From assembly GCA_002256025.1 (NCBI GenBank), contig NKIB01014993.1:1-38992 (forward strand): a stretch of DNA of 38,992 bases. Direction: 5' to 3'. Made by a program: the position numbers and the translations under genes. This document shows positions 7,917 to 13,974 of this stretch, piece after piece. Each line of letters begins with the position of its first letter. Position 1 is the first letter of the stretch. The DNA comes from Asterionella formosa (Eukaryota). The notes under the pieces are model-generated. The model saw only the letters and a list, made by a program, of their open reading frames with translations. It was not told the origin of the DNA and did not search any database.

Positions 7917-9052
7917 TCTGGAAGGTGCGGTAATTGCGCCTTCTGCTCGCCTTTTTGGTTTCAGCCCGCCTGCAGGGCTTCGAAACCACAACAGACCGAC
8001 GGAGTCGGAGTCGGCTGACTTTCTAGCCAATGATTTTTTCTTAAGTAAATTCAAATTATAATCGTAACTACGAAAAGGTAATAACTGCTAAGCAAACTGA
8101 GCCAGCTCATAGTGAGCAAATTGTTTTAGCAATGAGCAAATGCTCTGAGCAATGATCAAATGCTAGGAGTGATGAGCAAAATTTTCTCGTAGTGAGCAAA
8201 AAATTTAGCGATTGAGAAAAAAATTCCGGATTGAGCAAAATCGATAAGGATAAAGAGAAAGCAAAAAGTCATGGGCAAAAATAAAACCTTGTAATTTTTA
8301 GGCTGAAACAATTTCGTCTTCATTTTTCTGAATTAGAGCAACAATTAAATACCAGTAGTAAATTCTATGTAATACCGGTCATTGAGCAATTTTAATTATA
8401 CCACCGCTATTTGCTTGAATGAGGGGCCAGGAGGTTGTAGGCCGAGTAATAGCAAAAGCCTGACCCTATGTATGTATTTACCAGTAGTATTTTGCGCCTA
8501 AAAACCCTTGTTAAAATCGCATTGACCATGTTGATATTATTCTGTTGGTTTACTCATTAATTTTGCAACCTCCCATGCCACTTGATTTATCAACATAGCC
8601 GCCATGATCAGCGCTTTCAGTAAATGCATCAAGCGGCACGGGAGCACACGATTTCGTTTACATACGACCTATTTAGTGTTGAGCATCGCAAATCCACGCC
8701 TACATGAGCAACCAAATCACGTGCAAAACCTCTTGAGCTTGACAGTAAGGTACCAGGTACCGGTACCTGGAGTTGAAACTGTACAGGAATTCCTCAAATA
8801 GGGTGCTATAGCAGTTACAACATAGCTACTTCAGCGATTTCTCAACCATCGCTGTGCAATGGACTTCGATTTCAAGGTCATCATGAATGAACTCAACCAT
8901 GACAAACAACGAGATCGGATGGTAAAATTATTTTTATGTCTTCATACAATTTGTTCATGCGTGGCTCCAACGGTTGGTCGTAATTGCAAAGCCCTGCAGG
9001 CGGGCTGAAACTAAAAAAGCGCGCAGTTTGCGCAATTATAGTACCTTCCAGA
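7917..9052. mobile_element. Non-autonomous DNA transposon with ~90-bp terminal inverted repeats
   Basis: Left end TCTGGAAGGTGCGGTAATTGCGCC...GTTTCAGCCCGCCTGCAGGGCTT. The reverse complement of 8960-9052 reads TCTGGAAGGTACTATAATTGCGCA...GTTTCAGCCCGCCTGCAGGGCTT. No convincing ORF inside and no TSD found. Confidence 0.8.
8088..8280 (+). repeat. Array of TGAGCAAA motifs with ~20-bp spacing inside the long-TIR element
   Basis: About 9 TGAGCAAA/TGATCAAA/TGAGAAAA-like motifs in under 200 bp. Confidence 0.7.
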
Positions 9053-9324
9053 CAGGAAGGAGTAGACTACGTGACCTTTTGACAAGATTATACTACTGGC
9101 ATGTATATACATACCGGTATGTAGGACCTATTTTTGTTGATGTGTGATAATAGCCACTCATTGTTTGCAACGAGCGAATAAATTATTATTTTTTATTTTA
9201 GAAGCAACCATATTCCATGTATCGGTGTATTGCACACAATGTGTTAATAAAAAATACGTGAGTGATTGGGGCCCTCCATTACTTGTTGACCCACTCTTGC
9301 TTGTGCACCTATTCACTGCTGCCA

Positions 9325-12300
9325 ATGAATTTCTCCTCGTCGCATTGGAAACCCGTTGACGTGGGTCTCCCTGATGAAAGTGATTTCGAGCAAACAAGGA
9401 ATCATTATGACGACTCGAAGCTCAGCAAGCGAGCCACTCACGACCTAGAGAGTGATCCTGGCGAAGACGTTGCCATGTTTTTCGGCCTTGAAGTTATTGA
9501 TGGAAGCCACTATCACGTCACTACGAAGGGAACCACTAAAAAAGTTATATTTCATGACGCGCAACCAGACAGTGCTATTGATGCGGCCAATAGAGGAAAA
9601 CAGAAAGGAATCAAACGAACCCTACAGGCAGCCCCCTCACCCGAAGGCTCCAAAGATCTGCCTGAAGCCAACGAGACGGGAAAGATAGAATCAAAGAGTC
9701 CAGATCGCGAAGATTGTGATCCCGTCATTTCAAATTCAAGAGATTCACAACGAAATGCTGTTTCTACTGAGAACATCAAACCCAAAAGAAGCAAGTCCAA
9801 GAAATTGAAGGATAAAGAAAAGGAAGTTTCAAGAAACGACTCAAATATGGACCCTATTCTCGTATCTAGATTGCAAAACTCTTGGATGACAGAAACAGGC
9901 GGAGTTTTGCTGAAAGAATCCATTTGTGAGCGACTCATGAAGCAAGGCTTTGAGCGCCCGACTCCGATCCAAGCTGCCACTCTCGCAGCTTCTATTCTTG
10001 GTCGCCGCAATATCGTTGGCGCAGCTCCCACAGGATCAGGAAAGACACTGGCTTACCTTCTTCCCATTCTGCAGGAATTAAACGAGGAATCCGTTCTACA
10101 AGCACTCATTCTAACCCCAACTAGAGAACTAGCACTTCAAGTTTCGCAAGAGTGCAGCAAATTGGCACCTAAATCTTGTGGCACATTAGTAGGTGGCTTG
10201 GCTTTGGCGAAACAGGCCAGAGTATTGACACAGAGACCACCAATTTTGGTTGCTACAGCCGGACGTTTATGGGAATTGGTAAGTTGATCCTCCGCCAATT
10301 TCACTTCTGAAACGTTTCATTGCTCCTAACACATTTTTTTCCATTTCTTCGTTCATGCATCAGATGTCAAGCAAGGAGCATCTACATCTAAATGAACTTT
10401 CAAAAATTCGTTTCTTAGTTGTTGACGAAGCGGATCGAATGATACAACAAGGTAGCTTTCCTCAGCTGGTGAAAATTCTAGACGCCATCCACGATGCTAA
10501 TCCACTTTACGACGAAGGCGAATCTGAAGACGACGAGGATGACGACGACGACGAGGATCGAATGTCTGGACTACCAGGAATTCCCGGAGAAGCTAAAGTT
10601 GTGATGCTGGGCGATTTGATGGAAAGAATCAATCAGCAAAAGGGATATGCACACCAAATCCTCGAGGAAATCAATGATGAGATTGAAAATACAACTGTGG
10701 ATAATGAAGAAAAAATTGAGAACCGAACAGACCTGGTATCCCTAACTCCACGGGTGAATCGTCAAACATTCGTATTTTCTGCAACATTGACTTTGCCACC
10801 TTCAGAATCATATATCGCAAAACAGGGTAGGAAAAGCAAGAAGAAGAATGTCCCTAAAAATCTGAGCATTGATGGCGCCATTGCGGAAATTCTCGAGAGG
10901 ACTCGTTCTCACGGCAAAACAAAAGTTGTCGATTTGACTTCATCCGATAATTTCCTTTCATTTGACAACAAAGAGGCAACAGCGACTGACAAAACAGGCA
11001 AACAAACCAAGGCCTTTTTGTCTGCAGAATCCTCACGACTTCCACCTGGATTGTCCCTACTTCAAATCCAGTGTACACAAAAGCACAAGGATTCTCACCT
11101 CTACGCATATCTTGTAACAACAACCCAAGGTGGATCAGGACCCTGCCTTATTTTCTGCAATTCAATAGCCGGTGTCCGCCGTGTTGGTTCAACCCTCCAA
11201 ACTTTGCGCCTACCGGTCCGCATGCTTCACGCAAACATGCCACAGGTGAGTACGACAGGAGACGGAAGCTATTGTGGCACACTAGCAGCTATGAGGATGA
11301 AACTTATGTGAACTCGAATAGGTTGGATCAAAATGATTTGAATCTTTTCTTTCGAAAAAGGTGGGAGTCAAGTGAACAATCTCTGAGCTAAATTTTCCGT
11401 CCAGATCATGCTCCCACCCTGCCAATAGTTGCTCTAACTCGCTGAATTTCTTCTTTGGTTTAATTAACAGAAAGCACGGTTCAAAGCCGTTGAATCCATT
11501 CAGCAGCCAAAGAGCAGAGATATTGTCGTAGCCACCGACGTTGCTGCTCGCGGCCTCGACATTCCTTCTGTCGCAACCGTAGTACACTATGACGTTGCAA
11601 GACAAGTGGATACATTTATCCATCGTGCTGGACGAACAGCGGTGAGTACCTTAGCACAATAGGAAGGGAAAACGAGTAAGCGAAAAAGACGATGATGATA
11701 AAAATTGGTTTCGGACTAGAGTTTCTGAACGTTCGGGGTAGTAGCCGACCATGAAGAAAATTGTATTCTCTTGGCTGTCTGAGTCTGACCTTTTCAGTTG
11801 GTCTCGTTGCAGCGGAAATGATACTTTTAGACTCACATTTCTTGTTTGACTCCTTTTCAGCGCGGTATGGGAGTAGGCGCCGTTGGGTCAAGCCTTTCCC
11901 TCGTTGCACCAGGGGAAGATAAAGCTCAAGATCGAATTTGTAAAGCGCTCGGCTCAAAGCGATTGTTCCAAGGGGTGCCTCTTGACGGGCGTCTTCTTTC
12001 CGAAGCGCAAGCACGTGTGAATTTAGCTTCAAAGATTGTGGAGTGCGAGGATCTTGAATCAAGAACGAGAAAGCAGAACCAATGGTTTCAGAAACTTGCT
12101 GACGAAGCTGGGTTGGAGGTTGATGATGGCCTGATAGAGGATGGGTTGGCCGGTGGAGATAAACGGGAACAACAGCAGCTGCAAACGGCATTGCAAGCTC
12201 GGTCCCAACTTCGTATATTGCTTGCCCAACCTATGACAACCCAACGATTTGGCAAGTTCCTTTCCTGTAACAGTGCTGCGTTAGCCCTCCCAATATCCCC

Positions 12301-12355
12301 GCACGTTGTTCCATTGAGCTCGCAAAACAAGAAGCGAAAGCGTCAACAGCACTAG
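9325..12355 (+). CDS. DDX24: DEAD-box RNA helicase, DDX24/Mak5 family; exons 9325-10278, 10364-11245, 11471-11641, 11861-12355
   Basis: Q motif (GFERPTPIQ), [31 protein letters not shown] and HRAGRTAR. Mak5-type features: N-terminal WKPV...FFGLEVIDG, an acidic insert after DEAD, '[11 protein letters not shown]' and C-terminal 'QLRILLAQP'. Three GT-AG introns restore the frame. Confidence 0.9.
11287..11389 (+). ncRNA. Intronic box C/D snoRNA, predicted guide for the LSU A-loop uridine (yeast Um2921 equivalent)
   Basis: Box C ATGAGGA 11291-11297, box D CTGA 11383-11386, terminal stem AGC/GCT. GTGAACAATC (11372-11381) is complementary to conserved LSU GAUUGUUCAC, and the D+5 rule hits the second U. 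Confidence 0.7.
11687..11786 (+). ncRNA. Intronic double-guide box C/D snoRNA (snR78/U52-type plus U53-type LSU guides)
   Basis: C ATGATGA 11692-11698, D' CTGA 11725-11728, C' ATGAAGA 11751-11757, D CTGA 11779-11782, stem AGAC/GTCT. Guides: TCGGACTAGAGT versus LSU ACUCUAGUCCGA, and TTCTCTTGGCTGT versus LSU ACAGCCAAGGGAA (one G-U). Confidence 0.85.
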
Positions 12356-12396
12356 AGGTGAGTGTACCGTTTGATCGCGAACATTTGAAAACTCAT

Positions 12397-12495
12397 GGTG
12401 ACAATGAAGAATTGCCATTTTTCGGACTAGAGTCTCCAAATATTCGGGGTAGTAGCCGAATCTGTGGAAGCATGCATCCTTATGTCAGAGTCATC
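12397..12495 (+). ncRNA. Divergent paralogue of the 11687 snoRNA, in a predicted 3'UTR intron (12358-12557)
   Basis: Same guide (TCGGACTAGAGTC, 12422-12434) and identical hairpin TCGGGGTAGTAGCCGA (12444-12459). Variant boxes C ATGAAGA and D CAGA; stem GGTGAC/GTCATC. Donor AG|GTGAGT lies 2 nt after the stop; pyrimidine tract and CAG end at 12557. Confidence 0.65.
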
Positions 12496-13059
12496 ACCTC
12501 ATGAACCTACTTCGCTTGATACTTCGCCTCCCCTTGTTTCTCACACCTTCTCTCCAGTTTTATGTTATGGTCACTTTCTTGAGTGAGCTGAAGATCTTGG
12601 CCTGCTAAAACATGCTTTTTCTAAATTCTTAATCTTGTAACTATTAAAGAATTTTGTTTAATTGCATGGAATTCTTGCACTCGTTCGACAAATGAATCGA
12701 TACATGTACCGGTAGTTCATGTGTGAACTTTCTGGCTGTTGTCTTTAGGCTCTTAAATAGTCCCTTGATTCAAAGCCCCTGTTGTCGGACCAGGGTACCT
12801 GGTACCAGGTAATACGGCAATCGGAGTTACATACAACTCTGATGTATACCGGCAGTCACTATCCCCAAACCTCAACACGAGATAAGTAGAACTCATCCAG
12901 TGACTTCGCAATTGCTGTTGGACAATCTACTGTACTTTCGATTCCGGGAACGTGCAGGTAAGTATGTATCTTTGTCGTAGACATCGTCGCAGGAGCGTTC
13001 TGTCGACATAGCCAATAAGATAAGGCTGAGTAGTACATAGTAGTCGAACGTTTGCCTTT

Positions 13060-13974
13060 TCAAGTATTCCTCGTTTTGTTTCTAGGTGGAGGCCCGAACC
13101 CATCAAGTATATTGAGATCCAACTGATCCATAACAGTTTCGTGAGCCCACAGGGTCTCTCCCCATTTAGTCAGTCTCTTCAAAAACTTGAATCCATTCTT
13201 TTCAAGAACATCTCTCAAGGGACCTTTGGGTCGTTCAACTGTCAAAATACTGATTCGATATTCGCTGAGAGGAAAGTTCAACATGATAAGCTCTTCTGCG
13301 CCTTCGACATCCAAACTGAGGTAGTCAATTATTTTAGGGGAATTGAATCGTTCCAAAATCTCTTTAAGGGTAACAGTGTATCTCCTCAGTGATTTTGACT
13401 TAAACTTGGGTCCATTATCGAATCCTTCACCAGCAATACCCGAGTGATCCCCGGCATCAAAGCGGAAATGTACCTCATCCATTCTTTCGTTTCCAACAAT
13501 TGCTGCAACAACCTGACAGTCTCGATAGGTAAGATTGGCCCAATATTGAGGATTTGGCTCGATGCAAAGACCTGTCCAGCCCAAGCGCTGTTCCAAAGAG
13601 TATGTATTAGATAGCTCAGTAGCATCGTTGGCAGCCAAGTCCACAAAAAATCCGTTTCTCTTGTAACCAAGAAGCTTAGCAACTACTTCGTCTTGAGATG
13701 CTTGTGAGAACCATTCTTTATCTTTCGGCAACATTTCTTTAATGTGCGCTTGATTACCGTAAAATACTTCAATGGAATGCCAGCCAATGCTATTTGAACG
13801 GCTCTCTGTTGAACACGAGGTTGTCGCGCCTGCTTGACCGCGGTTGAAGTCATTGAAAACTGCCAGATTTGCGTGCCATCGACCTAACATGAGGCCGACA
13901 AGAAAAACAAAGGAAGTCCCTAAAGGACCCACAAGGAATGATTTTCGCTGGTTGGGAATGATCGGTCGTACCAT
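13060..13974 (-). CDS. FkbM-family (Methyltransf_21) SAM-dependent methyltransferase, type II membrane protein
   Basis: N-terminal transmembrane segment; motifs FSQASQD, GFFVDLAAND..SNTY, GWTGLCIEPN, IDYLSLDVEGAE and ILTVE. Confidence 0.85.
   Translation of the reverse strand: MVRPIIPNQRKSFLVGPLGTSFVFLVGLMLGRWHANLAVFNDFNRGQAGATTSCSTESRSNSIGWHSIEVFYGNQAHIKEMLPKDKEWFSQASQDEVVAKLLGYKRNGFFVDLAANDATELSNTYSLEQRLGWTGLCIEPNPQYWANLTYRDCQVVAAIVGNERMDEVHFRFDAGDHSGIAGEGFDNGPKFKSKSLRRYTVTLKEILERFNSPKIIDYLSLDVEGAEELIMLNFPLSEYRISILTVERPKGPLRDVLEKNGFKFLKRLTKWGETLWAHETVMDQLDLNILDGFGPPPRNKTRNT

Follow-up and report, generated by a model that had tools for sequence, protein, structure and literature searches.

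Small nucleolar RNAs (snoRNAs) of the box C/D class encoded in the introns of ribosome biogenesis genes are a well-known arrangement, and in animals the hosts are translation or ribosome biogenesis genes such as NOP56, NOP58, EIF4A1/2, and ribosomal protein genes. [quoted passage not shown] The helicases Mak5 and DDX24 work on pre-60S particles. We analyzed a 38,992-nucleotide (nt) stretch of DNA from the diatom Asterionella formosa (GenBank assembly GCA_002256025.1, contig NKIB01014993.1, positions 1 to 38,992 of the forward strand; hereafter the window), which contains a gene for a DDX24/MAK5-like DEAD-box helicase with four introns. Our main conclusion, to which we assign a probability of roughly 0.8, is that one box C/D snoRNA in the sense orientation is encoded in each of three of these introns (snoRNAs A, B, and C, in introns A, B, and C) and that the guides of these RNAs act on LSU rRNA.

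Splicing of the host gene and position of the snoRNAs

Contigs of four public runs were placed on positions 9000 to 13100 of the window; three are RNA runs from different studies (X10, polyA; X8, a metatranscriptome; and X13). Each of these three contains a single contig that spans all four splice joints, and the contigs reproduce to the base the borders that an earlier reading of the sequence (the original prediction) had given for the snoRNA-bearing introns, 11246 to 11470, 11642 to 11860, and 12358 to 12557. The open reading frame (ORF) list puts the TAG stop codon at 12353 to 12355, and because intron C begins 2 nt past this stop, it belongs to the 3′ untranslated region (3′UTR) and not to the coding sequence. 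The fourth intron of the gene, intron 1, had been described as free of a C/D structure, which agrees with our finding that it has no C/D motif by eye and, at 85 nt, is too short for such an RNA. A C/D structure with a terminal stem had been described in each of the others; all three RNAs have the stems, and the boxes of snoRNA C are degenerate. Measured from the 3′ splice sites, the D boxes lie 84 (A), 78 (B), and 68 nt (C) upstream; the C boxes follow the 5′ splice sites at 45 to 51 nt downstream, a spacing like that of the splicing-dependent intronic snoRNAs of vertebrates. Run X8 also has separate contigs over 11245 to 11480 (depth, 187) and 11683 to 11885 (depth, 298) and none over intron C; we draw no inference from contig cover.

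snoRNA B and two mapped methylation sites

A permissive Rfam scan of positions 11200 to 12650, a check suggested with the original prediction, matched snoRNA B to RF00333 (snoZ157/R69/R10, clan CL00063) over the full model (1 to 100) at 40.8 bits and an E value of 1e-6, matched snoRNA C to the same family (E value, 0.053), and found no family for snoRNA A at an E value of ≤10. In the whole window, no Rfam match reached the gathering score. Both guide blocks of snoRNA B are identical to the RF00333 consensus (GGACUAGAG..CUGA and CUUGGCUGUCUGA) and keep the order of the family; the Tetrahymena family TtnuCD15, which has the same two guide blocks, is a weaker match. Since snoRNA B falls in the catalogued RF00333/SNORD52 clan, only A is new as a family.

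Targets of snoRNA B were sought with the reverse complements of its two guide cores separated by a gap of 35 to 65 nt. The pattern gave no loci in viral contigs and at least 23 in prokaryote assemblies, and all 16 of the loci checked (those on short contigs or with a 68-nt span) are eukaryotic LSU rRNA. In five LSU loci, both guides form duplexes of 13 bp with one G-U pair each, D′ with GACTCTAGTCCGA and D with ACAGCCAAGGGAA, and no rival duplex of comparable length for these guides is conserved across the five. Shuffled guides equal the observed duplex against the 2,540-nt LSU in 5 of 5,000 trials for D′ and in 15 of 5,000 for D. Positions were numbered through LSU locus L023, which is colinear with Arabidopsis 25S rRNA at an offset of 2240; with this offset, the locus has the correct base at 38 of the 38 2′-O-methylated (Nm) sites in Table 1 of PMC8053127. 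The nucleotides at position +5 of the two duplexes correspond to Arabidopsis U2422 (D′ guide) and C2366 (D guide), which are 56 nt apart. In Arabidopsis, Cm2366 (human Cm3869) is attributed to AtU53/AtsnoR37 and Um2422 (human Um3925, yeast Um2421) to AtsnoR37 (PMC8583080, Table 1). Because its two target sites are the AtsnoR37 pair, we take snoRNA B to be a guide of the AtsnoR37/SNORD52 type.

Between its D′ and C′ boxes, snoRNA B has a hairpin whose loop is complementary over 9 bp to LSU CTACTATCC (Arabidopsis positions 2344 to 2352), 10 nt upstream of the D-guide duplex. "Extra pairs" similar to this loop pairing have been reported in Arabidopsis and yeast snoRNAs, and the loop shared by B and C may be an accessory pairing element upstream of the D-guide target. 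All 10 diatom-type B copies inspected have a hairpin with the loop GGUAGUAG in this place, with stem sequences that vary and with one loop base changed in each of two copies; among the metagenome matches listed, which include 77 distinct B-type sequences, 16 have the loop motif. Polymorphisms in intron B at 11680, 11760, and 11801 all fall outside the boxes and guides and are too few for an argument from selection.

snoRNA A, a candidate guide for the A-loop uridine

The guide of snoRNA A is only 11 nt long and pairs with the LSU through 10 Watson-Crick pairs and a terminal G-U pair, which is the best duplex in four of the four LSU loci that cover the site; these loci were chosen independently of the target of A. 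Its +5 nucleotide corresponds to Arabidopsis U2922, the A-loop uridine and a mapped Nm site. Guide nucleotides 1 to 10 (GTGAACAATC) and the D box CTGA are invariant in all seven family members; the last guide base differs in one of them (L124). The C boxes of the homologues read ATGATGA, ATGAGGA, GTGAGGA, or GTGACGA; the homologues point to ATGAGGA as the C box in the window, and GGATGA, another candidate, was dropped. The terminal stem (3 to 4 bp) occurs as AGC/GCT, GGC/GCC, GGTT/AACC, and GGT/ACC. In a seven-sequence alignment, 89% of its cells are paired and both partners vary in three of its four pairs. Among 500 shuffles, 1 attains either this paired fraction or the observed covariation score and 19 match the two-sided changes; slid controls are all lower (14 to 46% of cells paired). 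Covariance model R1 scores snoRNA A of the window at 77 bits. Run on the window and 122 loci, a covariance model from six A-type sequences retrieved the six training sequences and L024 (30.9 bits), with no second A copy in the window. snoRNA A represents a new, diatom-wide family with the A-loop uridine as its predicted target.

The seven-sequence alignment has no conserved second guide. A possible D′ guide at 11316 to 11327 (12 bp, three of them G-U) was rejected, as it pairs in one LSU locus only, is followed by no box, and lies in an unconserved spacer, and an internal CCC/GGG pairing seen by eye was not counted, as the G-runs permit several registers. All A-type RNAs share, by eye, a motif of the form TGGGAG, TGGGGG, or TGTGGG located 5 to 8 nt upstream of the A-loop guide (11362 to 11367 in the window); it could be a C′ box or could make an extra pairing with CCAC after the target, across a guide-side bulge.

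The original prediction placed the targets in LSU domains IV and V. This is approximately correct: domain V contains the A-loop, and by the alignment with Escherichia coli the snoRNA B targets presumably lie near the domain IV/V border.

According to PMC8583080, PMC8053127, and PMC11542601, the counterparts of the A-loop uridine are Um2921 in yeast, Um4498 in human, and Um2552 in E. coli. The first two sources name snR52 as the yeast guide and report none found in Arabidopsis; in a review table, the entries are Spb1 and snR52 for yeast, FTSJ3 for human, and, for Arabidopsis, "nd" (no snoRNA detected) with candidate protein genes (PMC11542601). In another possible role, snoRNA A might bind the A-loop without methylating it, as a chaperone or timer that masks it during 60S assembly, with a Spb1/FTSJ3-type protein as the methyltransferase, which is the proposed route in human and a suspected one in Arabidopsis. 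The assignment of human Um4498 to FTSJ3 and the lack of a known Arabidopsis guide fit such a role, as do the late modification of the human site (PMC12350172) and the noncanonical C box of snoRNA A. We consider it unlikely nonetheless, given that the register is exact, so that position 5 counted from an invariant CUGA box falls on the known Nm nucleotide, that guide and box are jointly invariant throughout the family, and that snR52 guides this same methylation in yeast. Guided methylation of the A-loop uridine by snoRNA A is the function we prefer.

snoRNA C, a degenerate duplicate of B

snoRNA C is a paralogue of snoRNA B. Its D′ guide forms 13 Watson-Crick pairs with the LSU (the register was corrected by hand), which 2 of 5,000 shuffles equal. 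Of the guides that had been predicted to be aimed at LSU rRNA, those of A and B pair at sites methylated in Arabidopsis, yeast, and human, and C contributes its D′ guide alone. RF00333 calls for both guides together with canonical D and D′ boxes; snoRNA C has one guide and the boxes CAGA and CCAA. We read it as a degenerate duplicate of B in which the Um2422 guide alone is kept, either as a weak back-up or in the course of decay.

Duplicates of B occur in several other helicase loci. L058 has two intact B-type copies in tandem in the same intron, and the orthologous intron of L103 (509 nt) holds a B-type unit, a U14-like unit, and a D′-only copy that matches SNORD52 (E value, 0.002). In L050, the last intron, which is coding (phase 2, with six codons after it), carries a B-like copy whose D′ guide is intact and whose D guide is altered. 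Because this copy sits in a coding last intron, the 3′UTR intron of the window is probably the same intron, now preceded closely by the stop codon. The U14-like snoRNA of L103 (3355 to 3449, minus strand) lies between two B-type units, matches Rfam SNORD14 (RF00016) at 38.8 bits (E value, 2.6e-6), and is absent from intron B of the window.

That snoRNA C is instead a dead copy, spliced out and degraded without guide activity, has in our judgment somewhat less than an even chance. Its boxes CAGA (D), CCAA (D′), and AUGAAGA (C) are all off consensus, its D guide is shortened by a deletion and lacks an LSU target (3,486 of 5,000 shuffles do as well), and its Rfam match is weak (24.1 bits). Its 16-nt D′ guide block, however, has one difference from that of B and its hairpin is identical at 17 of 18 positions while the remainder has diverged, a pattern that uniform decay would not produce. 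The D′ duplex is better than that of B, and the C′ box CTGTGGA is the C′ box of intact copies. Degenerate D′ boxes are also found in sole or clearly intact orthologous copies (CCGA in L058 and L103, GCAT in L066/L082), and L050 and L103 likewise retain second copies in which the D′ guide is intact and the D guide altered.

Conservation across diatoms

Scanning metagenome contigs with the two guide cores of snoRNA B gave at least 123 loci, and tblastn with the window exons found helicase exons in 7 of 123 B-type loci among the matches listed. Six are clear (L050, L058, L066, L082, L083, and L103; 40 to 81% identity per exon), with L066 and L082 overlapping and representing one organism; the match of the seventh, L071, is weak (33 residues). 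In all six clear loci, a B-type RNA closely precedes the equivalent of exon 4; where exon 3 is covered too, the RNA is flanked by the equivalents of both exons, and the splice position is the same. Orthologous copies match RF00333 with E values of 6e-7 to 8e-4. The intron between exons 2 and 3 is covered in four loci, all four of which contain GTGAACAATCTCTGA with a C box 80 to 110 nt upstream; elsewhere the intron is unalignable. Conservation in orthologues had been set beforehand as a test of the prediction, and both A and B are kept in the orthologous introns of other diatoms.

Lineage labels for these loci are those of the nearest named proteins rather than of a phylogeny: Mayamaea and Epithemia for L050 (51 to 58%), Cyclotella and Stephanocyclus for L058 (79 to 80%), and Thalassiosira for L082, L083, and L103 (54 to 64%). 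With pennate, Cyclotella, and Thalassiosira proteins as nearest neighbors, the arrangement spans distant diatom lineages, and by sequence comparison the B-type RNA is in the same helicase intron in five other lineages, pennate-like and Thalassiosira/Cyclotella-like. On balance, we think it probable that the diatom A-loop uridine is methylated by means of a dedicated C/D snoRNA that has resided in the same DDX24/MAK5 intron since before the split between pennate-like and Thalassiosira-like lineages.

A-type and B-type units also stand in tandem in two loci with no helicase gene around them (L124, 98 to 760; L024, 3214 to 3590). In L124, a single apparent intron contains both A and B, and the next one contains another B, with intervening exons that are very short and look noncoding; the A homologue of this locus matched no Rfam family at an E value of ≤1. 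Given these tandem units, the linkage of A and B may predate, or be independent of, the helicase host.

Conserved intron blocks might also be cis-regulatory elements of the helicase pre-mRNA, acting in splicing or autoregulation, and not stable RNAs. Consistent with this, the blocks are conserved in introns of one gene only, at six loci, and the RNA data are contigs without mature ends. We regard this explanation as highly improbable, since tandem A-type and B-type units also exist apart from helicase genes, B-type units are found in at least 123 loci from many organisms, and the architecture of boxes, stem, and guides, the Rfam match, and the complementarity to known Nm sites are unexpected for splicing elements. 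Intronic snoRNAs remain the better account of the blocks.

Proposed mode of action

In the mechanism we propose, splicing of the helicase pre-mRNA would be followed by processing of the snoRNAs out of the removed introns, their assembly into snoRNPs (small nucleolar ribonucleoproteins), and accumulation of RNAs of about 100 nt that direct methylation. Being made from spliced-out helicase introns, the snoRNAs would be produced in step with transcription of a gene that encodes a large-subunit assembly factor. Through the lone guide beside its D box, snoRNA A would place a 2′-O-methyl group on the A-loop uridine (the equivalent of Um2921 in yeast and of Um2552 in E. coli). snoRNA B would direct the equivalents of Um2422 with its D′ guide and of Cm2366 with its D guide, and its 8-nt hairpin loop could pair additionally just upstream of the D-guide target. 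snoRNA C would bring the Um2422 guide only, as a weak back-up or as a copy in decay.

Several points weigh against this reading. All runs consist of contigs, from which RNA ends, strand, and level are unreadable. The LSU loci are eukaryotic contaminants in prokaryote assemblies and not rRNA of this diatom, and they were picked with the guide cores of B itself; independent of that choice are, for B, the LSU identity of the loci, the extension of the duplexes to 13 bp, the 56-nt spacing, and the fact that the two mapped Nm sites share one plant snoRNA. LSU positions 1 to 837, small-subunit rRNA, and 5.8S rRNA lay outside the target comparison, and further targets are possible. snoRNA B, at 40.8 bits, falls below the RF00333 gathering threshold of 55 bits. 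The guide of A is short, and shuffles equal its duplex somewhere in the 2,540-nt LSU in 102 of 5,000 trials (2%), which makes the match taken alone no more than suggestive; its weight comes from the target being a known Nm nucleotide and from conservation. The C box of A, AUGAGGA, is off consensus, and RNAalifold run on the A-type alignment returned a weak local hairpin (−0.41 kcal/mol) and not the terminal stem. The boxes of C are degenerate and its D spacer is without an LSU target, as described above. Finally, the DDX24/MAK5 orthology of the host comes only from automatic names.

The locus offers three concrete diatom snoRNA genes with predicted, testable methylation sites; in the portion of the literature that our search covered, we found no list of box C/D snoRNAs from diatoms together with their targets. 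A conserved candidate guide for the diatom A-loop makes the spread of the RNA-guided route testable. If the proposal is correct, RNA-guided A-loop methylation would be no peculiarity of yeast and would be transcriptionally coupled to a 60S assembly factor. The conserved combination of helicase and snoRNAs can also serve as a convenient landmark when this gene and its introns are annotated in the genomes of diatoms.

Host helicase gene

The original identification of the host as a helicase agrees with Pfam, in which exon 1 matches DEAD (PF00270; E value, 2e-23), exon 2 the remainder of DEAD (1.4e-7), and exon 3 Helicase_C (PF00271; 1.4e-14); exon 4 matches no Pfam family. A search of the exon 2 protein against longer proteins gave 125 matches at an E value of ≤1e-10. 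After the product of the window itself, the top matches are 44 to 55% identical, and those with names are diatoms (Mayamaea, Nitzschia, Fistulifera, Cyclotella, Thalassiosira, Epithemia, and Seminavis), with oomycetes weaker. Several diatom and oomycete homologues are named "ATP-dependent RNA helicase DDX24/MAK5" or "ddx24" (JGI, NCBI), and a PDB search for a Mak5/DDX24 structure gave generic DEAD-box matches only. Because these names are automatic and the PDB matches generic, we call the host, a DEAD-box helicase by its predicted protein, DDX24/MAK5-like. None of the titles and abstracts returned by a search on DDX24 and snoRNA host genes presents DDX24 as a snoRNA host.

The start codon at 9325 is, by eye, the earliest ATG of the ORF. 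The database product, P0001 (821 amino acids [aa]), begins at an internal GTG read as methionine, compared with 833 aa from the ATG at 9325, and differs from the window translation somewhere outside exon 2, probably through strain polymorphism. An acidic, low-complexity stretch in exon 2 (10507 to 10560, with runs of GAC, GAT, and GAA) draws foreign contigs, loose ends, and joints that go back in X8; this clutter is not a feature of the helicase gene. The helicase mRNA contigs extend beyond 13100 (the X10 record has 4,011 nt, of which 3,117 reach up to 13100), and open stretches occur on the minus strand from about 12930. The 3′UTR may overlap a convergent neighboring gene, or two transcripts may have been merged by the assembler.

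Table 1. Features of the helicase gene, its introns, and the predicted snoRNAs (window positions)
Feature	Position	Strand	Remarks
Coding sequence, DDX24/MAK5-like DEAD-box helicase, 833 aa	9325..12355	+	Exons 9325-10278, 10364-11245, 11471-11641, 11861-12355
Intron 1, 85 nt, without snoRNA	10279..10363	+	GT..AG; joint 10278/10364 in X10, X8, X13
Intron A, 225 nt, houses snoRNA A	11246..11470	+	GT..AG; joint 11245/11471 in X10, X8, X13
snoRNA A (predicted), ~103 nt	11287..11389	+	Six homologues, stem covariation, covariance model
A, terminal stem AGC / GCT	11287-11289 / 11387-11389	+	
A, C box ATGAGGA	11291-11297	+	One departure from RUGAUGA consensus
A, D′-like TCGA	11314-11317	+	
A, C′-like TGGGAG	11362-11367	+	
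A, D guide GTGAACAATCT, 11 nt	11372..11382	+	Pairs with LSU GGATTGTTCAC
A, D box CTGA	11383-11386	+	
Intron B, 219 nt, houses snoRNA B	11642..11860	+	GT..AG; joint 11641/11861 in X10, X8, X13
snoRNA B (predicted), snoZ157/SNORD52-clan type	11683..11790	+	RF00333 match, LSU duplexes, hairpin fold
B, terminal stem AGAC / GTCT	11687-11690 / 11783-11786	+	
B, C box ATGATGA	11692-11698	+	
B, D′ guide	11711-11723	+	D′ box CTGA, 11725-11728
B, hairpin	11733-11748	+	Loop GGTAGTAG, 11737-11744
B, C′ box ATGAAGA	11751-11757	+	
B, D guide	11766-11778	+	D box CTGA, 11779-11782
Intron C, 200 nt, 3′UTR intron	12358..12557	+	GT..AG; joint 12357/12558 in X10, X8, X13
snoRNA C (predicted), paralogue of B	12397..12498	+	RF00333, 24.1 bits, E 0.053
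C, stem GGTGAC / GTCATCACC	12397-12402 / 12490-12498	+	
C, C box ATGAAGA	12404-12410	+	
C, D′ guide	12422-12434	+	D′-like CCAA, 12436-12439
C, hairpin	12443-12460	+	Loop GGTAGTAG, 12448-12455, as in B
C, C′ box CTGTGGA	12462-12468	+	
C, D-like CAGA	12486-12489	+	D guide lost

Comparison with known systems

snoRNA B shares with RF00333 and AtsnoR37 the full model length, both guide blocks, and the Um2422 and Cm2366 targets. It differs from RF00333 in scoring below the gathering threshold and in adding a clade-specific hairpin between D′ and C′, and from both RF00333 and AtsnoR37 in lying within an intron of a protein-coding gene, that of a helicase. The target nucleotide predicted for snoRNA A, by the +5 rule from the D box, is the one guided by yeast snR52 (25S Um2921). 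snoRNA A has no detectable sequence homology to snR52, in that no Rfam family matched it (whether Rfam holds an snR52 model was left unchecked), and unlike snR52 it has no conserved second guide and is encoded in an intron. The diatom locus resembles the intronic snoRNAs of animals in having one sense snoRNA per intron, about 70 to 85 nt before the 3′ splice site, and in its ribosome biogenesis host; its own features are that this host is a DDX24/MAK5-like gene and that one unit lies in a 3′UTR intron.

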